64,000 nucleotides of DNA. Source: Myxococcota bacterium. Its GTDB lineage: Bacteria; Myxococcota_A; SURF-8. The stretch covers positions 3,872,001 to 3,936,000 of the forward strand of contig OZ223209.1 of NCBI GenBank assembly GCA_965140415.1. The letters run 5' to 3'. Below are positions 13,904 to 63,493 of this stretch, piece by piece; position 1 is the first letter of the stretch, and the number at the start of each line of letters is the position of its first letter. The position numbers and the translations under genes were made by a program. The notes beneath the pieces were generated by a model. The model searched no databases and was not told the origin of the DNA. It saw only the letters and a program-made list of their open reading frames with translations.

Positions 13904-15088
13904 ATGAAGGCGTTGAAATATCTACAGGTTTTAATTTTATTGCTTGCAATGGCACTGTTTGTCATGGGTTGTGGCGGAGACGACGACAGCACGGACGGCG
14001 ACACCGTAGACGGCGATCAGGAAGAAGACAGCTTACCGGACGGTGACACCGCGGATGGTGACACGGCTGACGGTGACACGGCAGATGGCGATACGACTGA
14101 CGGCGATACGGCTGATGGCGATACCGCTGACGGCGATACGGCTGACGGTGACACGGCGGATGGTGATACGGCTGACGGCGATACGGCTGACGGTGACAGT
14201 CAACCGCAAGAGTCGATCTGGTGCGATCCTGTTACCAACATTTGCTGGCAAGATCCGCCTTCACCGGAGACGATGGCTCAAACCGACATGGTGCAATATT
14301 GCGATGACCTGATCTGGGCCGGTCACCAGTACTGGCGCGCCCCCTGCATCAACGATCTGCGCACCTTGATTTCGGGCTGCAACACCACCGCTACTGGTGG
14401 CGATTGCCCCGTGTCAATCAACTGCCTGGATCTTTCCTGCATCACAGGCGACTGCGCCGGCTGCGTCGGCAATCCCTGTTTCCGTTCCGGCGATTTAAAC
14501 GGGGAATGCGGTTCGTTATGGTCGATGTCCGAAGTCATGGATGATACCACTCAGGCTTTTACCATCGATTTCACGATGGCGGCAATTTCAAACGCCTTAA
14601 AAACGGAAAAAATGCCGGTACGTTGCGTGAAAGTCGATATGGATGGCGACATCGATGTTGATGTAGATGGCGATATGGATACGCCGGATGGAGACACTCC
14701 GGATGGTGATATCGATGCGTTCGATTCCGACATTGATTTTGACGGCGACGCGATGGAAGATGAGATTCCAGAAATCGACTGGGAAGCCGCAGATAGCGAA
14801 GTTCCCGAAATCGACTGGGATGCAGAGCTATTCGAACTTGATATGGAAGGCAGCTATTGCGGTTGTTCCTGTACGCAAAATCCTGATTACTCATACGATT
14901 GCACTGCCGTTCCCTCGGGCACGACCTTTACCGCCACAGGCTGCGATTGGGACGACGGCGAAGCCTGCACCGGTTGGCACAGCATCGTAGAAGCCAACGG
15001 CGGCAACCCGAATGGTCAGTTCCCGGATGGAACGAGCTTTGGCAAATCGGATTGGGGCTGTGACAGCATCACGATTCACTGTCCATAA
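13904..15088 (+). CDS. Lipoprotein with DGDTA repeats and Lcl/DUF1566-like domain
   Basis: RBS GGGAGG, lipobox VMGC, DPVTNICWQ...YCDDL...WRAPCINDLRTL...WS...VRCV (DUF1566 pattern) and a Cys-rich tail. Confidence 0.8.
   Translation: MKALKYLQVLILLLAMALFVMGCGGDDDSTDGDTVDGDQEEDSLPDGDTADGDTADGDTADGDTTDGDTADGDTADGDTADGDTADGDTADGDTADGDSQPQESIWCDPVTNICWQDPPSPETMAQTDMVQYCDDLIWAGHQYWRAPCINDLRTLISGCNTTATGGDCPVSINCLDLSCITGDCAGCVGNPCFRSGDLNGECGSLWSMSEVMDDTTQAFTIDFTMAAISNALKTEKMPVRCVKVDMDGDIDVDVDGDMDTPDGDTPDGDIDAFDSDIDFDGDAMEDEIPEIDWEAADSEVPEIDWDAELFELDMEGSYCGCSCTQNPDYSYDCTAVPSGTTFTATGCDWDDGEACTGWHSIVEANGGNPNGQFPDGTSFGKSDWGCDSITIHCP
14039..14203 (+). repeat. 11 x 15-bp coding tandem repeat (DGDTA)
   Basis: Ten DGDT[A/T] units plus DGDSQ. 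Confidence 0.95.
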
Positions 15089-15129
15089 CATCACGTAACG
15101 TGCCGCTTCCGGCACGGAAAGACAACACA

Positions 15130-15164
15130 AAAGGCCACTTCCGCTACATGTGGAAGTGGCCTTT
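15130..15164. terminator. Bidirectional intrinsic terminator
   Basis: AAAGGCCACTTCC...GGAAGTGGCCTTT between convergent genes. Confidence 0.8.
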
Positions 15165-15205
15165 CTATTCGTATTTTATAGGACAGCATGATACTTCGTG
15201 TTGTT

Positions 15206-15790
15206 TCAACCCACTTTGCGCAGCACCACAGCTCGACTGAAGCGGACCTTGGGCCGGTCCGTAATGTCCAGTCCAGCCCCCTTGGCCAGCTGGATTTCAC
15301 GGTCAAACGCGGCATTGGAAACATGCCCCTTCGGCTCTGCAAGAAAGAAATGCCCGCCCGGCTTCAATAGCGAGCCGATTTCATTAAAAAAGGCGGCCTG
15401 ATCGGGAGTTTCGTGCGCCATCCAAAACGCCACGGCGAAATCAACCGGTCCGCTGGCGCCAATTCGGTCCGATTCGCAACGGTGGAAGTCGATGCGTTCC
15501 AATAGACCGGACTTTTCGGCCCGCTCTTTAACCATCGCCAGCATTTCAGGCTGTAAATCGGCTGAGGTTACCTTTCCGCTCTGCCCGACCAGCTTAGCCA
15601 AACCGATTGAAGCGAAACCACGGCCACAACCGACATCCAGTACCTGCATTCCTTCCTGAACATAAGGCCGGAACATCTTTACCGGATTGTGAATCAAAGG
15701 ACGCAGGAAATTATCGAAAGATTTCACGGATTGCCAGGGGCAAACGTGCGGAGCTTTTTCACCTGACTTTGAAGCTTTGGGATTTGCCAT
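15206..15790 (-). CDS. Class I SAM-dependent methyltransferase
   Basis: VLDVGCGRG motif I, DLQPEML, LKPGG and an N-terminal HVCPW. Confidence 0.9.
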   Translation of the reverse strand: MANPKASKSGEKAPHVCPWQSVKSFDNFLRPLIHNPVKMFRPYVQEGMQVLDVGCGRGFASIGLAKLVGQSGKVTSADLQPEMLAMVKERAEKSGLLERIDFHRCESDRIGASGPVDFAVAFWMAHETPDQAAFFNEIGSLLKPGGHFFLAEPKGHVSNAAFDREIQLAKGAGLDITDRPKVRFSRAVVLRKVG

Positions 15791-48983: not shown

Positions 48984-49556
48984 TCAGGTCGGCATATCAA
49001 GAACAATATCCTCTCGCTGTGCCGGATCGATTTTCCAGACTTCCCGTCTTTCGAAATGCAATGGACGCGCCACTAAAACATCGGGGAACTGTTCGATATG
49101 CGTATTGAAAACCGTCACGGAATCATTGTAAAACTCGCGCCGGTCTGCGATGTGATCTTCCAACTGACTGATACGCCCCTGCAATCGAAGGAAGTGCTCA
49201 TCTGCTTTAAGTTGCGGATACGCTTCCGAAACGGCAAATAAAGACTTCAAGGTATCTGAAATCGCATTTTGCGCGTCGATCATTTCCTTGTCGCTTCTCG
49301 CATGTCCCATACGGTTACGCGCCTGCACAACGGCTTCCAGCGTTTCCCGCTCGTGCTTCATATACCCCTTGCACACCTCCACAAGCTTGGGAAGTTCATC
49401 GAATCGCTGTTTCAGCAACACATCGATGTTGCTCCACGACTTGTCGATGTTGTTTTTCATGCGGATCAATCCATTGTAAATCACCACAACATAGGTCAGT
49501 AGTCCCAAGATCAGTAAACCTGCTACCGCAAGTACAATCCACCCGATTACCATCAC
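48984..49556 (-). CDS. lemA: LemA family protein
   Basis: N-terminal TM, YNGL, WSNIDVLLKQR, YMKHERETL, EAYPQLKA and RREFYND. Confidence 0.95.
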   Translation of the reverse strand: MMVIGWIVLAVAGLLILGLLTYVVVIYNGLIRMKNNIDKSWSNIDVLLKQRFDELPKLVEVCKGYMKHERETLEAVVQARNRMGHARSDKEMIDAQNAISDTLKSLFAVSEAYPQLKADEHFLRLQGRISQLEDHIADRREFYNDSVTVFNTHIEQFPDVLVARPLHFERREVWKIDPAQREDIVLDMPT

Positions 49557-49591: not shown

Positions 49592-51676
49592 TCAACCATA
49601 GAAAAAGCCATCGTGATCTATAAAAAGAGATAAATCCATCACATTCAATAGGAAAAGCATTCCCGTAACCAGCAAACCGATGGCTCCGATGAACATTAGG
49701 CTGCTGTAAATCTTATAGCGTCGCGTAAGCCCGGTTTCCGTCGCACCGGCGACAACAAACGGTAATCGACCCACTTCCGCTTTCTGAATCACTGCACTTG
49801 GTGTTTCAGCATGAAGCTTTTGTTTTTCTTCTAAAACGGACTCGATTGCCTTCGCTTCCATGGCTGAACGCGCACTTTCCCATTCCTGTTCGTCGATAAC
49901 GCCATTACCATCTGCATCGTACTCGCGCAGCAGTTTTTCATGATCCTGTTTCAGTTCTCGAATCTTTTCCGCCGTACGCTGACTAAGGCTTGATAATTCC
50001 TGTTCGACACGCTGGGCCGATCCCAATACGTAAATCGGAGCGAATTCAGGAATGGTCTCTTCGATAACCTTCTCATCGGGACTGAAATGCACGTTCAACG
50101 AACCGGACAATCCGATATCACCACGATAGGTTTCCGAATGAGAAGGGAGAATACGCGCCCCCAGCGGATTCACCAAAACCTTGCCGGTCTCGTCTTTCAC
50201 TAAAAACGGCGCGGAACCGCTGTTCATGTCGGTTTGCAATACCCATTCCGTCTTGTTGCCGCTGTGCTTTTTCTTATAGCGACGCATCCTGTAATACACA
50301 CAGGCAATGTTGGAAATCGGCGCTTGCAGGTTACAGGCCCGCTCGCAGATTCCCTTGACTTCCACCATCCCCATGGCTAGGGAGCGGATTTTGGATGTAG
50401 GCGTGTTGTCCATCCAACGTTTTAAACTGAGAAAACGAAACGCGCTGTAAAACAGACCGGCGGAAATCAGGAAAAACAACACTCCCCGATTGATTCCGAC
50501 ATTCAGCAACCACATTTGAACTTTGGGGTTGAAATGTGCGGCAACGATCAACGCGAAAACCAGTAACGAAATTGCAATCGGGACCAGCGAAACTTTGAAC
50601 TCTAAACTGATTCCCCCCGCATTCTGTATCGGCTCTGGTGGTGACGGTAAAAAAGAGGCCGCCGTCATCGTATCTTCCGGTTTGTAACTCGGTTCGTCGA
50701 TCCCTTCGGAAGCGATTGCTTGAGAGGACATTCCGGTGTTGACTTGCGCCGCTGTCGCAATTCCTACCACGGCAGCAACCGCTCCACCTGCACCGGAATC
50801 TCCCATTACCGCTTTTTCCGTTTCAGGCGCAGTGGAGGCAGTATTTGTTTGAGTCGTACCCGGCTTGATATCCTGACCTTTGCGCGTCAGGTTTTGGCGA
50901 TACAATTCTCCTAAATAATATCCGTAACGTGATAAGCTATTCAGATTCGATTCCAAACTACCGGCAATATCCCCTTGAGTCAGACGACAACCCGGCATCT
51001 GAAACAATCCGAAATCCATTTCCAACGCGAACCACGATGACAAGCCTTTCACCAGCCGCACCACCCGATCCATATTTTGCCTGGCACTGGGAGTTGCGTG
51101 TTTCCCCAAACCGGTTGCGTTGAATTTTCCAGGTATGAACCGGAACGGTCCAATGGGAGCTTCATCGGATTGGGTAAACGATTCAGGCAGGATATACACA
51201 TCCAGAACCGGATTCGCGCTGAAAATGGTCTTATACTTTTCCTTGGCGTCCAATCCGACCAGTTCATTGGTCCGGTTGGACATGCGACGCATCAGTTTAC
51301 TAAGCAATCGTCCGTCGAAATCGGCCAGAACACCAAACGCCCTGCCCTTTTTCGGAAAAGAAACACGTTCCGATTTGGTTTCGAAAACAAGCGTTTCCCC
51401 CTGCATGGAAACCGCTTTTACCATCTGCGCTTTTGGAATACCCGGACGCGCGGGAACAACAGCCCTTTGGAATCCACCCTGCCCTAGTATTCCAGCCGCC
51501 GTGGAAAGCTCATTCGCTGTACCCTTCGCCAAATATCCCAACCCGGCTCCCATCAACGAAAGACGAGTCTGATAGGCATCCATCGAAGCCTGTTTGACAA
51601 GTTCTTCCACCAATGCAGACAGTTTCTGTGGATCGACAATCTGTTTTCGTACGAACAGGATGTGTTCTTCGCTCAT
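49592..51676 (-). CDS. Membrane protein with GIDE-like domain and EF-hand-like loop
   Basis: TM helices, NTPTSKIRSLAMGMVEVKG (GIDE start), PF.VKDETG.VLVNP.GA, DADGNGVIDEQEW loop and C-terminal TM; adjacent to lemA. Confidence 0.78.
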   Translation of the reverse strand: MSEEHILFVRKQIVDPQKLSALVEELVKQASMDAYQTRLSLMGAGLGYLAKGTANELSTAAGILGQGGFQRAVVPARPGIPKAQMVKAVSMQGETLVFETKSERVSFPKKGRAFGVLADFDGRLLSKLMRRMSNRTNELVGLDAKEKYKTIFSANPVLDVYILPESFTQSDEAPIGPFRFIPGKFNATGLGKHATPSARQNMDRVVRLVKGLSSWFALEMDFGLFQMPGCRLTQGDIAGSLESNLNSLSRYGYYLGELYRQNLTRKGQDIKPGTTQTNTASTAPETEKAVMGDSGAGGAVAAVVGIATAAQVNTGMSSQAIASEGIDEPSYKPEDTMTAASFLPSPPEPIQNAGGISLEFKVSLVPIAISLLVFALIVAAHFNPKVQMWLLNVGINRGVLFFLISAGLFYSAFRFLSLKRWMDNTPTSKIRSLAMGMVEVKGICERACNLQAPISNIACVYYRMRRYKKKHSGNKTEWVLQTDMNSGSAPFLVKDETGKVLVNPLGARILPSHSETYRGDIGLSGSLNVHFSPDEKVIEETIPEFAPIYVLGSAQRVEQELSSLSQRTAEKIRELKQDHEKLLREYDADGNGVIDEQEWESARSAMEAKAIESVLEEKQKLHAETPSAVIQKAEVGRLPFVVAGATETGLTRRYKIYSSLMFIGAIGLLVTGMLFLLNVMDLSLFIDHDGFFYG

Positions 51677-51952
51677 CTTTACCCCAATATAAAAACCACT
51701 TGATGGAATTTCCACATTCAGTATATGCATTTTATCCGGTTTTGTCACTTTTCTCAAGTCAAGCTCCAGCCTTCAACCCAATCTAGGCGCATGGCCCATC
51801 AACACCGCCTTTTCCGTCGAACTATAGGGTATCTTTAAAAATTCTCTTGTCGGATGTACTGCGTATTGATACTCTAATGGATATCATTGGATTTTCTCTA
51901 CGCGCCGAAGAAGCATCAAAACGGCAAAACAGGGGTTGGCGGTGAAATCATT

Positions 51953-53779: not shown

Positions 53780-54106
53780 TTATTTGAGGATACTACGTAG
53801 AGCAACTTCCAAATCGGGAAGGTCATTTACAATAATGTTCCAGACTTCGATAAGATCCACCCCCATGTAATCGTGAACCAACACATCTCGAAGCCCGGCT
53901 ATCCTACGCCAAGGAACATTTGCATAATGATCCTTCAACTCTAAGGAAATTTTCTTCGTCGCCTCTCCGATAATCTCGAAGTTTCGGATTACGCCATCTT
54001 GGATCAGTAAACTCGATTCAAAGGCGTCCTTTCCGTCTATCGTATATTCTTTGATCTTGGCGATAGAATCAAGAATGTGGTGCAGGTAAAGAAGGTCGGT
54101 TTTCAT
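53780..54106 (-). CDS. hepT: HepT (HEPN/DUF86) toxin RNase
   Basis: IRNFEIIGEA and PW..IAGLRDVLVHDY (RX4HXY). Confidence 0.93.
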   Translation of the reverse strand: MKTDLLYLHHILDSIAKIKEYTIDGKDAFESSLLIQDGVIRNFEIIGEATKKISLELKDHYANVPWRRIAGLRDVLVHDYMGVDLIEVWNIIVNDLPDLEVALRSILK

Positions 54107-54393
54107 AACGGAACAGATTCCCGCAGCACTTGCTCTCGAATGCTTTCGTGGAGAGCGCGTTCGTTTACGACATCGATTTTCCGTCCCAATAGATCTTCCA
54201 AAGCTTGCATGAAGGCGATGCGGTCCAGCAGGCTGCGATCTAGGTCCATTTCTACAAGGATGTCAATATCGCTGTCCGGTCGATCCTCCCCACGCACGGC
54301 AGAACCAAACAGCCGCAAGTTTCTTACACCGTGAGCTTTAGCCAAACGGTTGATATCAGTAATGTATGCTTTGATACGATCGTGGGTTGTCAT
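54103..54393 (-). CDS. mntA: MntA minimal nucleotidyltransferase antitoxin
   Basis: FGSAVRGEDRPDSDID (GSX10DXD) and LGRKIDVV; 4-bp overlap with hepT; ATG 54393 after GAGGA. Confidence 0.92.
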   Translation of the reverse strand: MTTHDRIKAYITDINRLAKAHGVRNLRLFGSAVRGEDRPDSDIDILVEMDLDRSLLDRIAFMQALEDLLGRKIDVVNERALHESIREQVLRESVPL

Positions 54394-54445
54394 TTCACAA
54401 TCCTCTTCATCATGATATCTATTATGCCGAGAATAAACGTAAAAA

Positions 54446-55225
54446 TCAAGATTTACAGCTCTTTCGCCCCTTCCCGCAATCGGGACAATCATCGTTTTTA
54501 GCCCGAGACAAATCCAAAATCGAATAGCGCCCGGACCAGATATCGAAACTGAACAATTCTGGATGTCGCTTCGATTCATCTTCCAACAGGATTTTCAATA
54601 CTTCTGTGACTTGCACGGCGCTAGCAAGAGCAACCGCCGTGCTTAAAACGCCGACTTCCAGAACGGAGTTCGGACCGGTTTCTTCCGGAGTCTGGGGAAA
54701 GATACAGCGTAAACAGGGAGTATTTCCGGTAAGGATGGAACAGACGGAGCCGGTGGTTCCCAATATTCCGGCATATACCCAGGGAATACCCAACCGTATG
54801 CATACACGATTGATCACATAATAACGCACCCCAAACGAATCACTTCCATCCAGTACGACATGCGACCCGGAAAGAAACTCCTCGGCGTTATTTTCATTAA
54901 GGAAGATCTCGTGAGATTCGATGTGACAGCTAGAATTGATTTTGCCAAGCCGCTCTGCCAAAGTAGCCGCTTTCGCTCGCTTTTCCTTTGCATCTTCTTC
55001 GGTGAACAGCGTTTGACGAGGTAAATTGGAAAGCGACACACAATCGCCATCCACCAATTGCAGTTCTCCAATTCCCCCTCGACAAAGTCTCTCTGCGCCC
55101 AGCGATCCCAATGCTCCGCAACCGACAATCGTAATCCTCGAACGTGCCAGTTTTTCCTGACCGACTTCTCCAAACTGCTCCAATAGAATATGGCGGCTGT
55201 ATCGCTCTCGATTTTGTGAATCCAT
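54446..55225 (-). CDS. ThiF/MoeB/HesA family adenylyltransferase
   Basis: RYSRHI, GCGALG, D.V..SNL.RQ, DGSD, CLRC and C-terminal CPDC. Confidence 0.92.
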   Translation of the reverse strand: MDSQNRERYSRHILLEQFGEVGQEKLARSRITIVGCGALGSLGAERLCRGGIGELQLVDGDCVSLSNLPRQTLFTEEDAKEKRAKAATLAERLGKINSSCHIESHEIFLNENNAEEFLSGSHVVLDGSDSFGVRYYVINRVCIRLGIPWVYAGILGTTGSVCSILTGNTPCLRCIFPQTPEETGPNSVLEVGVLSTAVALASAVQVTEVLKILLEDESKRHPELFSFDIWSGRYSILDLSRAKNDDCPDCGKGRKSCKS

Positions 55226-55739
55226 CGATTCTCCCTCTTTGCTCGTTCGGTAATAGTTTCCAACGGCATTCGCATCGCTGTCAATGGATTTCGTCTATCG
55301 ATCCACTTTCAAGAAAACTCTCTCAAACACACCTGCCTCCCAGAAGTCTAAATTCAAGACCAACTATTTTCTGAATGATTATTCATTAGATAGTTGACAA
55401 GAAGCCTTTCCTCGAAAATAATGTAGTGCCTTTTCCTAAATTGCTGAAAGTACTATTTCAGCCGGGTGGGATCGCTATTTGGCAGAATGTCAGAGGGATG
55501 CGAATTGGATACGAACAAGGCACGCTTGTATATTTATGCACTTTTGTTCGCATTTTCAAGTAAGGCATTCAATTGAGGGTTACCGGAATCGATGGCAAAT
55601 GGCCAGATGATTCCACGTTTCTTTATTCTTGCCAGTTCTCGAAGCGGCAGGTTTACACTTCGCATAAATGGGAATAAAGAAACCGATTCGCAAAAAATAA
55701 CGAAACGCAACAGCACGAAAGACTGGGAACGAAAGCGGC

Positions 55740-58700
55740 ATGCAGGGACCATTCAAACGAACGATCAACAAAGCGTCCGATCTCCGAGCGCAAAAGCAAT
55801 CGGGTAAGAATTCCGCTCAAAGCACCATAACAGAAGCGCTTCACGAAGCGTTTGTGCAGGCTGGGTTCAAGCCGTTGGATAATCGATTGATGGATGATGG
55901 CGGCAAGGAAGTGCAGAACGAGTGCATTCTGCGCGCCCGTTCGACGAGCGACGTACAACGGATCGTCACTATCGCGCATTCCATGTCTTTCGGTGTGATG
56001 CCGATTGGGTCGCTGACCAGCGCCATTGGCGCTTTCGAAACGCGCTCGGCAGCACGCCTGCATGGCTTGAACGGCTTTGTCGGTATTCAAATCCAACCTT
56101 CCGGACAACTGGAACCGCAAAACGCCCCCCCCTCCGAATTCGAACGCCTGATCCCCAGCGATCCGGATCTGCGCGAAAATATGGAAGTCTTCCGCAGCGT
56201 CAATTCGGAAGCCAGTCACCAGGTGCGCGTATGGGCGGGCCTCACACCGGGGCGTATCAACGAGGCGCTCATCGATTTACTGGGGCCGGGGCATTCCGTT
56301 TACCTGGATCTGACGACATTCAATCAGGCCCAGATCGGAGCCGTTGTGGCCAATGGAAGCGAAGGTCCGGTGCGCGCCAACGCACGCTTCAATCTCGTTT
56401 CCGCCACGCTTGTCGATGGCGCAGGGCAGTTACATCAGTTAACTCATGAACAAGCCAAAGCACAAGTCGGCCAGGGAGGAACGGCGGGAATCCTATCGGA
56501 AATCACGTTGGAAGTGATTTTTGAGGGAAGTAACGAATTCGGGTTCTTCATGCCATTGCCGGGAAGAATCGGTAAAGAATACACCGGCATGGTCAACCAT
56601 CTGCCGCATGTCATGGCGACACTCGATCCTTTCAGCCAGGCGCATTTCATCCAAGATTCGAAAGGGAAAAAACTCGTTGCCAAACGTGGCCCGATTTTAT
56701 TGAAAGGCTTTGAAATCATTACCCGCTCGGAACTGCGCAGCACCTATGGAAGTTTACGCGAAGACAGCGAAGAACGCGGGCGCATCGGAAGCCTTTTGGA
56801 AAACATGCGCGACAGCCACTGCCATGTCGGTCTGATGATCAATTGCACCACGGATATCACCGAAGAAGAGATGCTGACGTACCTGGAAGCGCTTTACGAA
56901 GATCGGCAGGATGCAGACAACCTCTTCTGTGTCATTCGAAACCTGCAACGCGAGCAGGAGGTTTACCAAAGCAAGGAAGGCTTGTACGAAACGGAAGAGG
57001 ACATTGTGTACTTCCGCCCCAGCGAAATCAAAGCGCTAAAACGAATGCGCGAAGCGATCCCGGAAATGACGCGTGCCTCCAAACTTCGGGGCTTCACCAG
57101 TTCTACGGATGTGAACTGTCGTCTGACTTCAGAATCGGAGCAAGAACGCGAGCGCGCCTATAAAGCCATTATGGAAACCTATTGGATGTATATCAACGAC
57201 CTGCGGGATCGTGATTTCCGGGTATACATCTATGGTCATCTTCATCCCGGCGACAGGGAACAGGCAACCGGCGGCGGCATCGACCTGCACGTGCGTGGCT
57301 CCTACTTTCTTGAAGGAGAAGACGAGGATCGCCAGAAGCGCGCGCCGGAAGCCTGGGTGTATCTGAAGGATCGCAAAAAGCAATTACTTAACGAACTCCA
57401 CGGCTTGCACGGTCAATTCGGAATCTGTATCGAGGCCGGAGAAAAACGGATATCCTCCGACTACGCCAGGTGGCTGTCCAATATCGAACCGGAAGCCGCT
57501 GAAGCATTTTATCGCACCAATGAACTCTATGGCGCACCAACCTTGGCCGCGCGCAGTCCGATCAAGCTACACGCTCATCCGCCACGAATCAAAGAAGGCA
57601 TCCTGAATCTCTTTGCACCGGACCCGAATATCGACGAACGGGCTTCTCTACTTATTCGCCTGCAACAATCGATCCTGTTGTGGTGCCAGCATTCTCATCG
57701 CAGTCCGGAATCGGCCAGGGTGATTGCGGAAACTCATGGCCTGCTTCGAGATTGGCTGGCGCTCGATTCCGAGGCACGGATATTCTTTACCGAATCGCCG
57801 GAAAAGGCCCTGCATACCTCGTTGATGGGCCTGGTCAATTTCCGCAAGGATGGAACTTTCGTCGATTTGAGAACGCAACGCTGGGAAGAGCTAACGTATG
57901 AAACGAAACAGCATTGCCAGGTTGTAATCTGCGATTCACCAGCCCAACTGGTCAATCCCGATTTTAAAGACTGTCACACGATTCTGATTTCCGAAAATGC
58001 CGAACCGATCTGCAAAGCGGATCTCGACCGGGCTAGCATCGCGATTTTATCCGCTCAGGCAATTGGCGCTGGCGCGGAGTTGGGAATCATTGTTACATCC
58101 CGAAACGTAATTCAACATGCCCGCATGATTGCGCTACGCAACAATCCGGGCTATGCCCATGCCCTTGTCGAGTTGGACGATCGCCCGCATGAAACGATCG
58201 AAACGCCACGTCTGCCCGTGATCGCCGAACTGGGCTGCCTGCTCGCTGAAAAGCTGGGACAATCCTGCAACTTGTCTCATGAACAAGCGACAGAAATGCT
58301 GGAATGGCAGAACAAGCTGATCACGTTTAATCCCGGTCCCAGCCAGATCAACAGGAAAATCGTTGAGAAAGCCGTCGCTCTGCATAAGCAAACTTTATTG
58401 TTGCACAGCGATACAGAGGCGCGCATCAAAGCCATTGCCGGAGTAGAGCGGCAACTGCGCGACTACTTTAGCATACCGAACAATCATCACATTTTCTTTA
58501 CCGGATCGGCGACGCAGGCCATGGAACAGATCGTTGAAAGCCTGCCGCTCGACTACGCCGTGGTCGGTGTCAAAGGCGCTTTCGGAGAACGCATGGCGAC
58601 TGTCGCCCGGCGCTACGGGCAAGGCATCATGAAGTCCGTTCACTTGCGCTGGGGCGAAGGAGAAAACAGCCAGGTCAAGTCCATTGCGTCTGAAATGTTC

Positions 58701-59636
58701 AGTAAGCTTCCAGCCAACCCGCGTAAGCGCAAGCAAAGCCGCGTCGGCTTCTTTATTACCGCCCACGAAACCTCCACCGCCGTTCAGACCCAACAAAAAC
58801 CCTTTCTCGCGGAATTGCAGTTTCTGGCGCAGAAAAACGGGCTGAAGCACCGACCCTTCTGCATCGTGGATGGCACATCGGAACTCGGATTCACGAAGCC
58901 GGACTTTCAGGATATCGATGTCTATTTCGGCTCCGTGCAGAAATTTCTGGGTTGTCCGGCTGGCCTGGGCGTAATGATCGTCTCGGATAGAGCCTTGCGC
59001 TACTCTATAGAACAGCAAAAAGCACAACAGAACATCAAGTGCATGCAGGGTTATCGCTGCTTCCCACAGTTGCAGCAGCAACGGGAACAGGGCTTTATAT
59101 CCAACCTGCGCGGCGTGCTCGAATTGGGTGTCGCACTGGCGGACTACCAGCAGCGCGGCGGCATTCGCACCCTGCAAAAGGAAACCCAGAAAAAACTCTC
59201 GATACTTATGGATGCCGTTTCGAATACGACTCACCTTGCGCCGGTTATTGTATCTCATAAAGATCGCTCGGGTGTGATGGCGCATCTTGTCGGCGTAGAT
59301 ATTGAAGTGAGCAGAATCGTAGAACGCCTTGCCGATCACGCGATCATCGGCAACGGCTATGGCCCTTACAAAGGAGAAACCCTGCGTTTGTACTGCTCTC
59401 CCAATCTTTCGTTGAAACAGGTGCACAGTACAACGCGCCTGCTGGACCGGGCGCTTTCGGAAATGGAGTCGGATGACGAGATTCTGACCGTCAAGCCGCC
59501 ACGCAAAAGCCGCAATCTGGACAAGGAATGGTTACGGGCGCAAGGACAGATCTCCGTGGACAGCCTTCGTTCCCTGCTGCCGGAACGGCTGCTGTGGAGA
59601 ATCAGGCGGGAATTGGGACGATTCAGCAGAAGCTAA
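55740..59636 (+). CDS. Fusion of FAD-linked oxidoreductase (FAD_binding_4/GlcD-like) with degenerate and PLP-Lys-bearing class-V aminotransferase (SerC-like) domains
   Basis: N-part P.GSLTS..G, AG.T, AQIGAVVAN, G..GT.GILSEITL, YGHLH...DLHV; middle SHRS...LRDWL..RIFF and ETP; C-part FNPGPSQ, GSATQAME, HETST, DGTS and SVQKFLGCPAGLG. Confidence 0.8.
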   Translation: MQGPFKRTINKASDLRAQKQSGKNSAQSTITEALHEAFVQAGFKPLDNRLMDDGGKEVQNECILRARSTSDVQRIVTIAHSMSFGVMPIGSLTSAIGAFETRSAARLHGLNGFVGIQIQPSGQLEPQNAPPSEFERLIPSDPDLRENMEVFRSVNSEASHQVRVWAGLTPGRINEALIDLLGPGHSVYLDLTTFNQAQIGAVVANGSEGPVRANARFNLVSATLVDGAGQLHQLTHEQAKAQVGQGGTAGILSEITLEVIFEGSNEFGFFMPLPGRIGKEYTGMVNHLPHVMATLDPFSQAHFIQDSKGKKLVAKRGPILLKGFEIITRSELRSTYGSLREDSEERGRIGSLLENMRDSHCHVGLMINCTTDITEEEMLTYLEALYEDRQDADNLFCVIRNLQREQEVYQSKEGLYETEEDIVYFRPSEIKALKRMREAIPEMTRASKLRGFTSSTDVNCRLTSESEQERERAYKAIMETYWMYINDLRDRDFRVYIYGHLHPGDREQATGGGIDLHVRGSYFLEGEDEDRQKRAPEAWVYLKDRKKQLLNELHGLHGQFGICIEAGEKRISSDYARWLSNIEPEAAEAFYRTNELYGAPTLAARSPIKLHAHPPRIKEGILNLFAPDPNIDERASLLIRLQQSILLWCQHSHRSPESARVIAETHGLLRDWLALDSEARIFFTESPEKALHTSLMGLVNFRKDGTFVDLRTQRWEELTYETKQHCQVVICDSPAQLVNPDFKDCHTILISENAEPICKADLDRASIAILSAQAIGAGAELGIIVTSRNVIQHARMIALRNNPGYAHALVELDDRPHETIETPRLPVIAELGCLLAEKLGQSCNLSHEQATEMLEWQNKLITFNPGPSQINRKIVEKAVALHKQTLLLHSDTEARIKAIAGVERQLRDYFSIPNNHHIFFTGSATQAMEQIVESLPLDYAVVGVKGAFGERMATVARRYGQGIMKSVHLRWGEGENSQVKSIASEMFSKLPANPRKRKQSRVGFFITAHETSTAVQTQQKPFLAELQFLAQKNGLKHRPFCIVDGTSELGFTKPDFQDIDVYFGSVQKFLGCPAGLGVMIVSDRALRYSIEQQKAQQNIKCMQGYRCFPQLQQQREQGFISNLRGVLELGVALADYQQRGGIRTLQKETQKKLSILMDAVSNTTHLAPVIVSHKDRSGVMAHLVGVDIEVSRIVERLADHAIIGNGYGPYKGETLRLYCSPNLSLKQVHSTTRLLDRALSEMESDDEILTVKPPRKSRNLDKEWLRAQGQISVDSLRSLLPERLLWRIRRELGRFSRS

Positions 59637-59797: not shown

Positions 59798-62700
59798 TTG
59801 AAACCGAAAACCTTCGAACAAGTTGCAGAAGAAATAAAAGGCAAGCCCATTCTGGTGGCGAACCGAGGCATTCCCGCCCGGCGTGTGCTGCGCTCCATCC
59901 GCGAGGTCTTCAAAGCGATACCCGTTATGACCGCCACGGATGTCGACCGCACTTCTCCAGCCACCAGCGGCGCACAGGAACTGATCCTGCTCGGCGAAAA
60001 TTCCCGCGCCTACCTCGATCTGGACCGGATCATCAAAAAGGCCAAGGACAAGGGGGTCATCGGCATCCATCCCGGCTGGGGATTTGCTGCGGAAGACGAC
60101 ACCTTCCCGGAAAAATGCGAAAAAGCGGGCATCGTCTTTATCGGCTCGGACGCCCGAACCATGCGCTTGTTAGGCAACAAGGTTTTGGTGCGCGGTATCG
60201 CCCGAGACTTGGGCATTCCGGTCGTTCCCGGTTCCGAAGGAGCCGTTACGATTGCAGAAGCCCGCAAAGAAGCCAGGAAAATCGGCTTCCCCATTTTATT
60301 GAAGGCGGAAGCGGGCGGCGGTGGTCGCGGCATTTACGAAGTCTACGACCAATCCCAGTTGGAAGAAGCATTCGCCAAAGCCTCTACCATGGCACAGGCC
60401 TCCTTCGGCAATCCCCGCTTGTTCGTTGAGAAATTGCTTACAAATATCCGGCACATCGAAATCCAGGTGGTGGCGGACCGCTTCGGCCATGTCATCGCTT
60501 TGGACGAACGTGACTGCACGGTGCAGCGCAACCATCAGAAGTTGATCGAAATCACGCCATCGCCTTGGCCCGTCATGACGGAAAGTCTGCGTAAAAAGTT
60601 GAAGCGCTGGGCCGAGAAGCTTATCAAGTCCGTGGGGTATCACTCGCTGGCGACTGTTGAATATCTGGTAGACCAACATGGCGAACCGTATCTGATCGAA
60701 GTGAACACCCGCCTGCAAGTAGAGCATGGCATTACGGAATGCCGCTACGGCATCGATCTGGCGGAAGAACAGATCGCCATCGCCTTCGGGGCGCGGCTTA
60801 GACTGACTCGGGACACCTGCCCGATGAACCACGCGTTGCAAGTGCGTATCAACTGCGAAGATCCGCAAAATGGCTTCAGCCCGAATGCTGGCGTCATCAC
60901 CCGTTATATTTCGCCCGGCGGCCAGGGCGTGCGCATCGATTCCTGCGTTACGGCAGGCTATGAATTCCCCAGCGACTACGACTCAGCAGCATCTCTGCTG
61001 ATCGCTTATGGCGCGAGTTGGAACAAGGTGCTGGGCATTATGGATCGCGCATTGGGCGAATACATCATTCGCGGCGTAAAAACCACGATTCCTTTCCACA
61101 AGATGATCATCGCCAATCCGCAGTTTCGCTCGGGCCAGTACAGCACCTCTTTCCTGTCAGAATCGCCGGAATTGATGAATTACGTCGATCCGATACCAGC
61201 ACCACTGCGCAGTTCTCGTTTAGTCGCGGAGATTTCCGCCAAGGGCTACAATCCCCATCTACAACTGGGAGAGTATCGCGGCGTTCAGGACAAACGCGTG
61301 GGACGCTTTTCGCCAATCCTGCCGGAAATCGATATCAAGCAGGAGCCTTCTCCCTACCCTCGCTGGGATCGCAAAGGCTTGCTCGATGTGCTGCGGGATT
61401 CCGACTACGTTCACTTTACCGACACCACAACTCGCGACATCACCCAGTCCAACAGCGGCAATCGCTTTCGACTGGCCGAGGATCGCCTGATCGGTCCTTA
61501 CCTGGACAATTGCTCGTTCATGTCGTTGGAAAACGGCGGCGGAGCGCATTTCCACGTCGCCATGCTGGCGAACATGACCTATCCTTTTTCCGAAGCCGAG
61601 GAATGGAACCGCTTCGCGCCGCAAACACCCAAGCAAATTCTGATCCGTTCCACCAACGTGCTGGGATATCGACCGCAACCCCCGAATCTCATGGATAAAA
61701 CCGGGGAAATGATCTGTGAACAGTACGACATCGTACGCTGCTTCGACTTTCTGAACCACGTCGAAAATATGGAGTCGTTTGCCCGGGTTGTGATGAATTC
61801 CCCCCGCAATACCTTCGAGCCTGCAATTTCCCTGTCGTATTCGGAGGCGTTTACGGTGCGCCATTACGTCAAGGTCGCCACGGAAATCGTGACGATGTGC
61901 GCTAAAGCCGCCGGGGTCGGTCCGAAAAAGACGTCGCGCATGATTATCCTGGGGTTGAAGGATATGGCGGGCGTCTGCCCTCCGCGCTTCATCGGAGAAC
62001 TGGTTTCCGAACTGCGCAAAAAGTTCCCGGATCTGGTGCTGCACTATCACCGCCATTACACCGACGGCCTGTTCGTTCCCGCCTACGGAGCCGCCGCCAA
62101 ATCCGGAGCCAAGATTCTGGACACCGGAATCGGCGCCGCCGTGCGCTGGTACGGCCAGGGCGAGGTGCTTTCCACCGCCGCCTATTTGGAAGGCGAACTC
62201 GGTCTGAAAACGAAACTGAACACGGAAATGATCCGTACCACCGGTTTCGTGCTGAAGCAGATCATGCCTTATTACGACCGCTACACCGCCCCTTATTTCC
62301 AGGGCATCGATTACGACGTCGTCGAGCACGGCATGCCGGGAGGAGCCACCTCGTCTTCACAGGAAGGCGCGCTCAAGCAGGGATACATTCACCTGCTGCC
62401 GCACATGTTGAAGTTTCTTGCAGGTACACGACGCATCGTGAAGTACCATGATGTGACACCCGGCTCGCAGATCACCTGGAACACCGCATTTCTGGCTGTA
62501 ACCGGCGCCTACAAGCGCGGAGGAGAAAAGGCGGTGAACGATCTCTTAAACGTGCTGCAAACCGTAGTGGAAACTCCCGAGAAGAAACTGTCTTCGGAAA
62601 TCAAGCGAGCGCGGCTGAAACTCTATGCAGACTGTAACGACGCCTTCCGCGATCTTCTGCTGGGTAAATTCGGCAAACTGCCGCTCGGCTTTCCCAAAGA

Positions 62701-63493
62701 CTGGGTATATGAAAGCGCCTTCGGCAAGAAGTATCGCGAGGCGCTGGCCCAACGTACCGAAATCTCTCCCTTGCAGCAACTGACCGATATCGACCTGGAA
62801 AAGGAACGGCAGGCGCTGCAAAGCGCCATCAAGCGTGAACCCAGCGAAGAAGAATTCGTGATGTACCTCAACCATCCCGGTGATGCGCTGAAAACCATTT
62901 CCTTTAAGAGTGACTACGGCGATCCCAACCAATTGCCATTGGATGTCTGGTTCGAAGGAATCGAAATAGGAGAAACGCTGGTCTTCCGGGACAACTTCGA
63001 CAAGCCGCACGAGATGGTCATTCTGGACTTTCAGGAACCAGATGAACGCGGCATGAGTATCGTGCGTTATACCCTGGATTCGGAATTCTTTTCGTACCAG
63101 GTTCGTGTTGCGGAGCCGACCGGCGCAGCGAGTGCAACCGCACTTGAATTGGCCGATCCAGATAATCCCTATCACATCGGCGCACCCAGCAACGGCGATC
63201 TGTGGGTGATGCACGTCCGACCGGGAGATCGAGTCAAGCAGAACGAGGAAATCTGCAACATCTCGATTATGAAACAGGAAAAGGCGATACTCGCCCCGAT
63301 GGACGGCACCGTCAAGCGCGTATTGAAAACCGCCGATTACACCAAAGATCGCAAGATGGTTGGCGTTAAAGCCGGAGAATTGCTTGTGGAATTGGGAGAG
63401 CCGGTGGATGCTTGCCCGACCTGCCGGGCGGAAATCGTCGCCAGCGATTTCCAGTTCTGCCCACATTGCGGCCAAAAACTGGCAAAAGCTTGA
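59798..63493 (+). CDS. pyc: Pyruvate carboxylase (single chain BC-CT-BCCP) with C-terminal zinc ribbon
   Basis: ANRG, HPGWGF, GGGGRG, RDCTVQRNHQK, EVNTRLQVEH; CT DTTTRD, LKDMAG, HRH, VTPGSQ; biotin site IMKQ; CPTC..CPHC; TTG start after GAAAGGA. Confidence 0.93.
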   Translation: MKPKTFEQVAEEIKGKPILVANRGIPARRVLRSIREVFKAIPVMTATDVDRTSPATSGAQELILLGENSRAYLDLDRIIKKAKDKGVIGIHPGWGFAAEDDTFPEKCEKAGIVFIGSDARTMRLLGNKVLVRGIARDLGIPVVPGSEGAVTIAEARKEARKIGFPILLKAEAGGGGRGIYEVYDQSQLEEAFAKASTMAQASFGNPRLFVEKLLTNIRHIEIQVVADRFGHVIALDERDCTVQRNHQKLIEITPSPWPVMTESLRKKLKRWAEKLIKSVGYHSLATVEYLVDQHGEPYLIEVNTRLQVEHGITECRYGIDLAEEQIAIAFGARLRLTRDTCPMNHALQVRINCEDPQNGFSPNAGVITRYISPGGQGVRIDSCVTAGYEFPSDYDSAASLLIAYGASWNKVLGIMDRALGEYIIRGVKTTIPFHKMIIANPQFRSGQYSTSFLSESPELMNYVDPIPAPLRSSRLVAEISAKGYNPHLQLGEYRGVQDKRVGRFSPILPEIDIKQEPSPYPRWDRKGLLDVLRDSDYVHFTDTTTRDITQSNSGNRFRLAEDRLIGPYLDNCSFMSLENGGGAHFHVAMLANMTYPFSEAEEWNRFAPQTPKQILIRSTNVLGYRPQPPNLMDKTGEMICEQYDIVRCFDFLNHVENMESFARVVMNSPRNTFEPAISLSYSEAFTVRHYVKVATEIVTMCAKAAGVGPKKTSRMIILGLKDMAGVCPPRFIGELVSELRKKFPDLVLHYHRHYTDGLFVPAYGAAAKSGAKILDTGIGAAVRWYGQGEVLSTAAYLEGELGLKTKLNTEMIRTTGFVLKQIMPYYDRYTAPYFQGIDYDVVEHGMPGGATSSSQEGALKQGYIHLLPHMLKFLAGTRRIVKYHDVTPGSQITWNTAFLAVTGAYKRGGEKAVNDLLNVLQTVVETPEKKLSSEIKRARLKLYADCNDAFRDLLLGKFGKLPLGFPKDWVYESAFGKKYREALAQRTEISPLQQLTDIDLEKERQALQSAIKREPSEEEFVMYLNHPGDALKTISFKSDYGDPNQLPLDVWFEGIEIGETLVFRDNFDKPHEMVILDFQEPDERGMSIVRYTLDSEFFSYQVRVAEPTGAASATALELADPDNPYHIGAPSNGDLWVMHVRPGDRVKQNEEICNISIMKQEKAILAPMDGTVKRVLKTADYTKDRKMVGVKAGELLVELGEPVDACPTCRAEIVASDFQFCPHCGQKLAKA

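Follow-up and report, generated by a model that had tools for sequence, protein, structure and literature searches.

A Flavoenzyme-Like Domain Fused to an Aminotransferase That Appears to Carry Its Own Degenerate Partner: A Candidate Two-Step Enzyme of Myxococcota and Peregrinibacteria

A Three-Module Fusion Protein

What reaction would be carried out by a protein that joins a flavin-dehydrogenase-like domain to an aminotransferase in one chain? The question is raised by an open reading frame (ORF) in the genome of a Myxococcota bacterium (assembly GCA_965140415.1), of which a window of 64,000 nucleotides was analyzed (contig OZ223209.1, positions 3,872,001 to 3,936,000). The ORF runs in one uninterrupted frame from 55740 to 59636 of the window, on the + strand like all features of the protein given below, and encodes a three-module fusion protein (P0001) of 1298 amino acids (aa) plus a stop codon. 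The genome (G000) is a single contig of 5.98 Mb that holds the fusion gene in one copy.

An initial sequence-only reading had placed a GlcD-like flavin adenine dinucleotide (FAD) domain in frame with SerC-like domains and had offered three functions: a PdxR–SerC fusion in vitamin B6 synthesis, an FAD-dependent replacement for SerA, and a D-2-hydroxyglutarate recycler coupled to serine synthesis. As a description of the domains, this holds in Pfam searches, fold comparisons, and profile alignments. The plural in "SerC-like domains" was also correct, as residues 621–858 form a second, degenerate domain resembling phosphoserine aminotransferase (PSAT). What had been overlooked is that this middle domain looks like a dead pseudo-subunit. 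The protein therefore comprises three modules: a divergent VAO/PCMH flavoenzyme-like domain (residues ~30–620), a degenerate PSAT-like half-subunit (621–858), and an active-looking class-V aminotransferase (859–1250).

The best explanation for this architecture is an enzyme that catalyzes two successive steps. The N-terminal domain would represent a new, very divergent subfamily of D-2-hydroxyacid dehydrogenases that depend on FAD and a metal, and would convert an anionic D-2-hydroxyacid to a 2-oxoacid, and the class-V aminotransferase would turn that 2-oxoacid into an L-amino acid. The aminotransferase would work as an intramolecular pseudo-heterodimer with one active site and not as a homodimer. 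This general scheme, from 2-hydroxyacid through 2-oxoacid to amino acid on a single-site pseudo-dimer, is probably right. The explanation in its entirety, with D-3-phosphoglycerate as the substrate, falls just short of an even chance. What the analysis shows directly is the folds of the domains, the pattern of retained and missing residues, and a predicted packing, from which flavin and metal binding, catalysis, the substrate, and the electron acceptor are inferred.

Because its Pfam matches are weak and its SerC scores lie far under their cut-offs, the protein is not a canonical GlcD, and it is not a canonical SerC either. The match to FAD_binding_4 (PF01565) at residues 148–234 is marginal (26.8 bits; cut-off, 26.4), and the fusion gene is absent among the six PF01565 matches at E <= 0.001 in a scan of the whole G000 genome. 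Aminotran_5 is matched at residues 1040–1202 with 39.2 bits. The best NCBIfam models are the SerC equivalogs (TIGR01364/NF003764), at 58.8 versus 443.6 and 49 versus 253 bits.

An assembly chimera, which the sequence-only reading had named as a possible artifact, is excluded because the same architecture recurs in 13 other proteins, in seven loci from independent genome assemblies, and in eight metagenome loci. The architecture had been unfamiliar to that reading, and literature searches, including one directed at PdxR, turned up no paper describing an FAD-dehydrogenase/aminotransferase fusion.

An Active Site Apparently Divided Between Two Copies

The C-terminal domain (C-domain, residues 859–1250; 58314..59489) is a class-V aminotransferase of the PSAT/AGXT type that has, by sequence, a complete cis active site. 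The assignment draws on the Aminotran_5 match, on a profile of alignment A1, which consists of the 14 full-length fusion sequences including P0001, and on alignment A7, which joins the C-domain with its stand-alone aminotransferase relatives. Compared with the PDB, the A1 profile finds aminotransferase chains only, all through the C-terminal region. At the head of the list stand 3ffr, labeled SerC (E 3.9e-36), and 2dr1 (1.2e-25), with AGXT-type enzymes and canonical PSATs after them.

The cis residues of the pyridoxal 5'-phosphate (PLP) site are invariant and aligned in the C-domain. (Papers are cited here by PubMed Central identifier, each for the part of its text that was available.) The predicted PLP-phosphate loop is G922-S923-A924-T925 (58503..58514), which is invariant in A1, corresponds to A145-T146 of AtPSAT1, and forms part of the interface predicted with the middle domain. 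D1044 (58869..58871), invariant in A1 and A7, is the Asp that would pair with the PLP pyridine nitrogen. In Q1067-K1068 (58938..58943), K1068 is the predicted Schiff-base Lys, which is invariant and aligns with the SVQK of 3ffr and 2dr1. R1216 (59385..59387), placed by A1 and A7 at R403 of AtPSAT1, is the predicted binder of the alpha-carboxylate (PMC6043687) and is preceded by GYGPYK, not by the GHR of SerC.

In PSATs, the remaining residues of the site come from the dimer mate. The AtPSAT1 residues H110*, R111*, N306*, and T307* extend into the active site of the partner subunit (PMC6043687), and the trans residues of the Escherichia coli enzyme are His41' and Arg42' (PMC6797613). Their ligands are the phosphate or the distal carboxylate of the substrate and, on the cofactor, the phosphate of PLP (PMC6043687, PMC6797613). 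The stand-alone relatives in A7 hold the corresponding SHR and TPN motifs together with the Lys in one chain, whereas the C-domain has neither SHR nor TPN. In place of the TPN trans loop it has N1122-L-R1124 (59103..59111), with R1124 invariant in A1, and its own trans Thr is lost.

Counterparts of both motifs occur in the middle domain (57600..58313), a degenerate PSAT-like large domain lacking a Schiff-base Lys according to hhalign, AlphaFold2 (AF2), and Foldseek, which is read as an intramolecular pseudo-subunit. Its homology to the C-domain is seen with hhalign (probability 87%, E 3.7e-6), and its profile matches the PSAT 3ffr at E 7.1e-5. The AF2 model of the middle domain alone has a predicted local distance difference test score (pLDDT) of 93.7 and a predicted template modeling score (pTM) of 0.90. 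Its Foldseek list, made up mostly of phosphoserine aminotransferases, is headed by 3ffr (E 8.5e-10) and 2dr1 (PH1308). The stretch aligned to SVQK reads LSAQAIGAG and holds no Lys. The domain has S652-H653-R654 (57693..57701), which aligns to the SHRS of SerC and corresponds to the His/Arg given in trans by the PSAT mate for the distal anion. It also has E821-T822-P823 (58200..58208), which aligns to the ETPN of 3ffr and corresponds to the Asn-Thr given in trans to the PLP phosphate. In a 28-sequence alignment of middle domains (A6), T822 is the sole invariant column, and Q650, H653, R654, and P823 are among the columns conserved in at least 90%.

Because the C-domain has lost SHR and TPN while the middle domain keeps H653-R654 and T822 without a Lys, a single active site appears to have its cis and trans halves divided between two tandem copies. 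The trans His-Arg and Thr are carried by the dead middle domain, the catalytic domain lacking them, and the predicted packing puts them at the site of the C-domain. In the working enzyme, the C-domain would contribute the GSAT loop, D1044, K1068, and R1216, and from the middle domain would come H653-R654, to bind the distal anion, and T822, to bind the PLP phosphate.

The two domains are predicted to pack as a dimer would. Their predicted complex scored 0.84, against 0.00 for the best of three controls, and so passed a mark that 116 of 157 solved complexes attained, as did 2 of 215 mismatched pairs; the pass may reflect likeness to solved class-V aminotransferase homodimers and not independent evidence. 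Between runs, 76% or more of the contacts recur, and the pLDDT of the partner does not fall below 82. In domain numbering, the predicted interface joins middle-domain residues 29–33 and 200–207 with C-domain residues 63–68, 207/209, and 263–267. The T822 region (200–207) contacts the GSAT loop (63–68) and the residues beside K1068 (207/209), and the NLR region of the C-domain (263–267) contacts the dead site of the middle domain. The chain thus presents two homologous halves, only one Lys, and a predicted dimer-like packing, the design of a pseudo-dimer.

The closest known enzyme for both aminotransferase-like domains, by sequence and by fold, is 3ffr (CHU_0995). With this type, and with stand-alone enzymes encoded in two other genomes (G583 and G464), the fusion shares GSAT, the Asp, SVQK, and GYG..K...R. 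Unlike the stand-alone PSATs, which are homodimers, the fusion splits its motifs between two domains and would have one active site per polypeptide. Among fold-type-I PLP enzymes, this design was found described only for the glycine decarboxylase P-protein (GcvP/GLDC). There, an N-terminal half without a Lys and a C-terminal PLP half lie in one chain or form an alpha-beta heterodimer, and the available text gives all other fold-type-I enzymes as alpha2 homodimers, with the P-protein as the exception (PMC7259800). The shared element is an internalized, degenerate partner half lacking the Lys next to a single PLP-binding half. It is a resemblance of design and not of family membership: GcvP belongs to a different family and has a different (decarboxylase) chemistry, its N-terminal half is full-size compared with the 238 residues of the fusion's middle domain, and it carries no dehydrogenase. 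If the assignment is correct, the fusion would offer a natural example of a homodimeric PLP enzyme turned into a single-site intramolecular heterodimer, with cis and trans residues divided between the two copies.

The N-Terminal Domain as a Candidate D-2-Hydroxyacid Dehydrogenase

The N-terminal domain (N-domain, residues 30–620; 55827..57599) is a divergent VAO/PCMH domain of the FAD type that resembles D-2-hydroxyacid dehydrogenases in its AF2 model, in Foldseek, and in hhalign. When residues 1–620 were searched with phmmer in a set of 1.84 billion representatives, no more than 70 proteins came up at E <= 0.001. They form three groups: a fused group of ~1110–1350 aa, a second fused group of ~1350–1570 aa, in which the two proteins looked up are both from Peregrinibacteria, and a stand-alone group of ~530–690 aa. 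Pfam matches of these relatives are weak or absent. By sequence, the best match of the N-domain profile in the PDB was uninformative (E 0.0015 over ~100 residues), and a search of the ESM Atlas returned only generic FAD_binding_4 clusters. The FAD-oxidase_C cap domain (PF02913) gives no match to the N-domain at E <= 1; the cap is seen only through the fold and through profile–profile alignment.

The fold is clearer. An AF2 model built from a 35-sequence alignment (A4) has a pLDDT of 89.4 and a pTM of 0.90 and shows the two-domain VAO fold (Foldseek E 1e-17 to 1e-15), with template modeling scores (TMt) of 0.67–0.75 to LDHD, Ldh, and D2HGDH. The top PDB matches are the Acetobacterium woodii Ldh of the Ldh-EtfAB complex (7qh2_C; E 1.2e-17, TMt 0.72), mouse LDHD (8jde; TMt 0.75), and RPA1076 (3pm9). 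Human D2HGDH (6lpn) comes next, then alkyl-dihydroxyacetone phosphate (DHAP) synthase and cytokinin oxidase, at identities of 8–15%.

The residue register was taken from 14 GlcD-type ORFs of other Myxococcota genomes, those of 27 loci that hold both canonical motifs, each cut to its last 470 residues. In global mode, hhalign aligned the N-domain family with these proteins over 429 columns (probability 98.3%, E 8.4e-14), and the resulting equivalences are those of profile alignment and motif register, not of structural superposition. A register based on four VAO paralogs of the same genome (A5) was set aside, since only the FAD domain aligned (probability 52.7%) and the paralogs have no GEHG.

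The sequence-only reading had singled out two divergent motif pairs, and both are upheld by the profile–profile alignment. YGH(500)...DLH(517) falls on GH.GDGN.H, with an insertion of 10 residues between the two halves, and GE(568)K(569) falls on GEHG. R437 aligns with the carboxylate Arg of the canonical proteins, and H500, H517, and E568 align with their His/His/Glu metal triad. R437 (57048..57050) is the predicted binder of the C1 carboxylate, equivalent to LDHD Arg347 and D2HGDH Arg386 (roles from PMC10589216 and PMC7801405). In Y498-G499-H500 (57231..57239), H500 would be the first metal-ligand His, and Y498 resembles Tyr432 of D2HGDH, a residue of the distal-carboxylate site (PMC7801405). 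In H517-V-R519 (57288..57296), H517 would be the second metal-ligand His, and R519 stands at the position of LDHD Ile407 and D2HGDH Asn443 by hhalign and motif register. In E568-K569 (57441..57446), E568 is the predicted metal-ligand Glu, and K569 replaces the catalytic His of GEHG. Closer to the N terminus, T93-S94-A95 (56016..56024), within the loop IGSLTSAIG and invariant in A1, matches the canonical FAD-pyrophosphate loop RGxGTxxxGG in hhalign and would contribute to flavin binding.

These positions are strongly conserved. In a set of 62 N-domain family members (17 fused, 18 long fused, and 27 stand-alone), R437, D457, Y498, H500, H517, and R519 are each present in all 62, position 445 is Arg or Lys in all 62, and E568 and K569 each occur in 61, with one gap. 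In mouse LDHD and human D2HGDH, the His, His, and Glu are the Mn/Zn ligands and act alongside the C1-carboxylate Arg and a catalytic base His; mutation of any of these residues abolishes activity (PMC10589216, PMC7801405). Judged by alignment, the N-domain appears to retain intact the residues with which D-2-hydroxyacid dehydrogenases bind metal and carboxylate, but the base would be an invariant Lys. The invariant Glu-Lys in place of Glu-His represents a testable mechanistic variant of these dehydrogenases, and the stand-alone members of the family, of which 27 were examined, are equally uncharacterized.

Set beside LDHD, the A. woodii Ldh, D2HGDH, and GlcD, the N-domain has the same two-domain fold and, as in VAO/PCMH D-2-hydroxyacid dehydrogenases generally, aligned FAD loops, carboxylate Arg, and metal triad. 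It differs in its low identity (12–14%) and the poor PF02913 and PDB sequence matches already described. It also has the insertion between the His residues, the Lys in place of the catalytic His, ~130 extra residues, and a fused aminotransferase.

The substituted base raises the alternative that the N-domain is not a dehydrogenase at all and instead serves as a non-redox or regulatory flavin or ligand module, leaving the aminotransferase as the only catalyst. The proposed base His is a Lys in 61 of 62 members, and mutation of the equivalent His abolishes the activity of LDHD and D2HGDH (PMC10589216, PMC7801405). An electron-acceptor partner is also not evident in the carriers belonging to the candidate phyla radiation (CPR), and the VAO fold includes the non-oxidative alkyl-DHAP synthase, one of the Foldseek matches. 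That enzyme, however, scores under the D-lactate dehydrogenases (D-LDHs; TMt 0.49–0.62 versus 0.72–0.75), and a Lys could serve as a base. Strict conservation of the metal triad, the carboxylate Arg, and the FAD-loop residues extends to the 27 stand-alone members, which have no aminotransferase to regulate. A purely regulatory N-domain is improbable.

The candidate substrate pocket gives a hint about the side chain. In D2HGDH, Tyr432 and Asn443 bind the distal (C5) carboxylate, and D-LDH and GlcD have small or hydrophobic residues there (PMC7801405); Ile407 of LDHD belongs to a hydrophobic subsite (PMC10589216). The N-domain has an Arg (R519) where D-LDH has Ile and D2HGDH has Asn. Because Tyr498 and Arg519 occupy the distal-carboxylate positions of D2HGDH, and with the Arg or Lys at 445 also at or near them, we infer that the substrate would have an anionic tail.

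The same two-step mechanism could act on a dicarboxylic substrate, taking D-2-hydroxyglutarate through 2-oxoglutarate to glutamate or D-malate through oxaloacetate to aspartate. Y498-x-H500, H517-x-(polar), and a Pro four residues after R437 (in 46 of the 62 members) are closer to D2HGDH and yeast DLD2/3 than to D-LDH and GlcD. In PSAT, the trans His-Arg also holds a glutamate analog by its gamma-carboxylate (PMC6797613), and some class-V enzymes are aspartate aminotransferases, as with 1iug in the PDB match list. The next gene in the window encodes a pyruvate carboxylase, which produces oxaloacetate, but this adjacency is missing from all seven other genome loci. The Peregrinibacteria carriers are without the SerA that would yield D-2-hydroxyglutarate, and the stand-alone C-domain relatives that were examined adjoin phosphoglycerate dehydrogenase (PGDH) genes, not genes of the tricarboxylic acid cycle. 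A dicarboxylic substrate is unlikely, while retaining a real share of the probability.

Host Genomes and the Choice of Reaction

The likeliest substrate would be D-3-phosphoglycerate, which the N-domain would oxidize to 3-phosphohydroxypyruvate and the aminotransferase would convert to O-phospho-L-serine. This is the leading assignment and a tentative one, somewhat less probable than its alternatives taken together. SerA carries out the same oxidation and likewise feeds PSAT; its fold and cofactor are unrelated to those of the fusion (a Rossmann-type 2-Hacid_dh protein using NAD). Flavin-dependent oxidation of 3-phosphoglycerate would avoid the unfavorable equilibrium of SerA, and the labile keto acid would be passed directly to the PSAT site. 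The fusion would then be a one-polypeptide, NAD-independent stand-in for SerA and SerC in Peregrinibacteria and an accessory copy in the Myxococcota genome of the window. An FAD-dependent SerA replacement feeding PSAT was one of the options of the sequence-only reading; it fits best of the three, with the blemish that phosphoserine phosphatase was not found in the carriers.

The Peregrinibacteria genomes provide the setting for this proposal. In all five of these carriers, the fusion is the only SerC-family match, and serine hydroxymethyltransferase (SHMT) is present in four. SerA over cut-off was not found in them. They hold at most one strong 2-Hacid_dh protein each, with none in G002, and in the three hosts examined this protein is glyoxylate/hydroxypyruvate-reductase-like (PRK13243, 319–374 bits, with PGDH models under cut-off). 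The stand-alone relatives of the C-domain also point toward serine. In G583, a 358-aa stand-alone aminotransferase, 30% identical to the C-domain of the fusion protein P0010, lies in a contiguous operon of PGDH (600.9 bits versus 404), aminotransferase, and HAD-IB phosphatase. In G464, a PGDH (641.3 bits) is encoded 2.3 kb away from the stand-alone enzyme (35% identical); no similarity to the N-domain was found in the 578-aa neighbor of that enzyme. These are the two that were examined of the three aminotransferase-only matches in a sample of the hosts' class, the third being in G704.

A recycler of D-2-hydroxyglutarate coupled to SerA, also among the earlier options, is disfavored in the CPR hosts, where the sole strong 2-Hacid_dh protein is reductase-like and PGDH over the NF008759 cut-off is found in none of the eight carriers. 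The absence of PGDH was itself considered as evidence for the serine assignment and rejected: 0 of 8 fusion carriers compared with 26 of 393 other genomes of the hosts' class (26 of 401) would be expected by chance more than half the time.

The vitamin B6 option deserves separate attention because of a close precedent. PdxR (SMc00985) and DVU0827 are GlcD-type flavoenzymes that displace an NAD-dependent 2-Hacid_dh protein on a phosphorylated D-2-hydroxyacid, with the product passed to SerC; PdxR, the FAD-dependent 4-phosphoerythronate dehydrogenase, replaces PdxB, a paralog of SerA (PMC9997740). A PdxR–SerC fusion would convert 4-phosphoerythronate to its keto acid and then to 4-phosphohydroxythreonine in the pathway that depends on 1-deoxy-D-xylulose 5-phosphate, and the anionic features of the pocket would suit that substrate. 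The available text makes PdxR a canonical member of the PF02913/GlcD family that is unfused to SerC and occurs with PdxA and PdxJ (PMC9997740). The N-domain, by contrast, is not matched by PF02913 at E <= 1. Among the eight host genomes, none has PdxJ over its cut-off and seven give no match to it; G000 alone has a sub-threshold match (141.7 versus 192.75 bits), and PdxA was not searched. PdxS, which marks the other route to PLP, is present in all eight. This option of the earlier reading is disfavored and now stands as highly improbable.

A nonphosphorylated route is a further alternative, either D-glycerate through hydroxypyruvate to L-serine or glycolate through glyoxylate to glycine, comparable to photorespiratory GlcD with serine:glyoxylate aminotransferase. 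It would explain why phosphoserine phosphatase was not found in the carriers, and the motifs GAFG.R and GYG..K are common to the C-domain and to enzymes of the AGXT/SGAT type (2dr1, 3zrp). In two of the three Peregrinibacteria hosts examined, the reductase-like gene adjoins a glycerate 2-kinase gene (loci L014, 2754–5213, and L015, 1961–5220), so glycerate is an intermediate there. At two other loci (L002 and L008), the fusion gene lies within a nucleoside-salvage cluster linked to RuBisCO. RuBisCO is, however, present in only two of the eight host genomes, and the glycerate cluster has its own class-I aminotransferase alongside in G001 and G005 (in L015, a class-I aspartate-aminotransferase-like gene). 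R519, the Arg or Lys at 445, and H653-R654 argue for a distal anion, which is missing from glycolate and glycerate. This route is rather unlikely.

The preferred assignment, oxidation and transamination of 3-phosphoglycerate, has a number of points against it. Some concern the protein. To the low SerC model scores, the absence of a structural superposition behind the N-domain equivalences, and the caution on the packing score must be added a possible difference in chemistry, since 61 of 62 members have a Lys (Lys569) where GEHG has its catalytic His. Where canonical SerC has a cis His-Arg pair that binds phosphate (H396/R397 in AtPSAT1), the fusion reads GYGPYK instead. The same GYG..K...R replacement occurs in stand-alone relatives in a serA-serC-serB context, and the genome's own SerC has GHR.

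Other points concern the hosts. The absence of PGDH in the carriers has no statistical weight because only 26 of 401 class genomes have one. SerB is over cut-off in none of the eight host genomes, and a homolog of the phosphatase in the G583 operon was not found in any of the five Peregrinibacteria carriers, in a search without a positive control; there is therefore no known outlet for phosphoserine in the carriers. An electron-transfer flavoprotein was found in none of the five, leaving no evident electron-acceptor partner for the proposed dehydrogenase. RuBisCO, as noted, occurs in few of the hosts, and the pyruvate carboxylase adjacency is not conserved. The earlier reading had pointed to serA and stand-alone serC as genes to check but had overlooked that the window genome has SerC-type and PGDH-like genes of its own. 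It holds a SerC of 454.5 bits (over the TIGR01364 cut-off), a second SerC-like protein of 408 bits (just under), and a 319-aa PGDH-like gene (401 versus 454 bits). Because these SerC-type and PGDH-like genes are already present, the fusion is not needed for serine synthesis in the window genome.

The fullest form of the proposal combines these elements into a flavin-driven, NAD-independent phosphorylated serine pathway in one chain, in which a flavoenzyme with a Glu-Lys signature works with a PSAT that has an internalized and degraded dimer partner and fills the serA and serC steps in Peregrinibacteria. It is possible, though doubtful enough to be held loosely. If true, it would give a function to a family annotated only as "hypothetical protein," would fill a gap in serine biosynthesis in some CPR bacteria, and would provide a flavin-dependent alternative to SerA that parallels the replacement of PdxB by PdxR.

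Several other genes of these genomes touch on the same area of metabolism. The second SerC-like gene of the window genome (L010, G000:C1:2433965-2438026) adjoins a gene resembling sulfoacetaldehyde acetyltransferase (NF005713, 618.6 versus 620 bits) and may serve sulfonate metabolism and not serine synthesis. The window genome also encodes a different long fusion, at G000:C1:1915458-1919009 (L097:1959-5510, - strand), an 1183-aa protein with SHMT at residues 94–432 and a folate-binding aminomethyltransferase domain (GCV_T) at 763–1037. Frames of 1192–1257 aa with an SHMT domain are likewise found in two other Myxococcota genomes that carry the FAD–aminotransferase fusion. In the hosts' class, the PGDH match at G804:C16:4076-5023 contains 16 in-frame TGA codons, consistent with a TGA-reassigned code in that lineage.

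Distribution and Phylogeny

The fusion family is rare and known from some of the Peregrinibacteria and from three genomes of Myxococcota. When 5.8 billion proteins were searched, 14 relatives of the fusion protein came up, 13 of which have 1226–1350 aa, cover 86–97% of the query, and are 32–55% identical to it; the odd one out is P0006, with 829 aa and 60% coverage. Members of the family cluster that are listed by name are all annotated "hypothetical protein." A scan of one genome per species gave seven fusion loci, five in Peregrinibacteria/Peribacteria metagenome-assembled genomes (MAGs; 37–40% identity) and two in Myxococcota MAGs (55%). A metagenome scan gave 45 loci, eight of them fused or partly fused (L016–L023). 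The other 37 (L024–L060) are stand-alone class-V aminotransferases that match only residues ~823–1242, at 23–32% identity.

In a 401-genome sample of the phylum, the full-length fusion occurs in three genomes, G000 and two from another family of the same order (L006, L007), and in none of the five other genomes of the window's own family. One further genome of this sample has an N-domain-like ORF of 771 aa. No aminotransferase similarity was found in the 370-aa neighbor of the N-domain-like gene of G200. Of the 401 genomes sampled from the hosts' class, 11 give a match, eight to the fusion and three to the aminotransferase only.

The fusion gene has apparently been transferred between the CPR bacteria and the Myxococcota. 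A quick tree of 27 fused proteins joins four Myxococcota-like sequences in one clade (SH-like approximate likelihood ratio test [SH-aLRT] 100) at an unresolved fork with the Peregrinibacteria clades. The tree is rooted at its midpoint only and does not establish the direction of transfer.

Within the protein, a basic C-terminal tail (residues 1251–1298; 59490..59633) is one of the more variable features. In alignment A1 it is found in P0001, P0003, P0004, and P0005 and is mostly missing from the other ten sequences.

Gene Neighborhoods

Neighboring genes at other loci make or use 3-phosphoglycerate and were counted in favor of the serine assignment. At L002 (4091–14466) and L008 (4692–14265), a same-strand run comprises genes for pyruvate formate-lyase, its activase, the fusion, an AMP phosphorylase-like protein, and a ribose-1,5-bisphosphate isomerase-like protein. 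The hosts of these two loci, G001 and G005, are the only ones of the eight with a RuBisCO large subunit. The metagenome loci L016, L021, and L022 have ORF layouts that match L002 and L008. A second arrangement is found at L003–L005, where the fusion gene lies between dnaK and grpE-hrcA, with glyceraldehyde-3-phosphate dehydrogenase (GAPDH) beyond, at 2.4, 1.4, and 2.5 kb downstream, respectively; in L005, the ORF at 14244–15245 was equated with GAPDH by size and position. The genes counted were those for AMP phosphorylase, ribose-1,5-bisphosphate isomerase, and GAPDH.

In the window, the gene that follows the fusion after 161 bp on the + strand (59798..63493) encodes a pyruvate carboxylase with a C-terminal zinc ribbon (PRK12999, 1224.5 bits against a cut-off of 965). 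It starts at a TTG codon, and the extra Zn_ribbon_3 lies at residues 1206–1228. A terminator scan found no terminator-like site between the two genes. Upstream of the fusion ORF, a gap of 514 bp holds a promoter-like site with 11 of 12 matches (55394..55422, + strand), of a kind no commoner than the shuffled expectation. A riboswitch or RNA leader that might name a ligand was sought and not found: Rfam gave no match between 53500 and 60500 of the window at E <= 1 and none in seven related loci at the gathering score.

In one Myxococcota MAG (L007, 11981–14807, - strand), LarC-, LarB-, and LarE-like genes lie convergent after the fusion gene, an arrangement seen at one of the eight loci. LarC, LarB, and LarE make the nickel-pincer cofactor of 2-hydroxyacid racemases.

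Two other groups of genes upstream in the window, both on the - strand, are worth recording. At 53780–54579, a HepT-like RNase gene (53780–54106) overlaps a gene for an MNT/Polbeta nucleotidyltransferase (54103–54579), forming a toxin–antitoxin pair of the HepT/MNT type that is situated between a FAR-like reductase gene and a ThiF gene. At 49592–51757, a 721-aa protein with a match to GIDE (E3 ligase-like) and an EF-hand adjoins a LemA-family gene (48984–49556).

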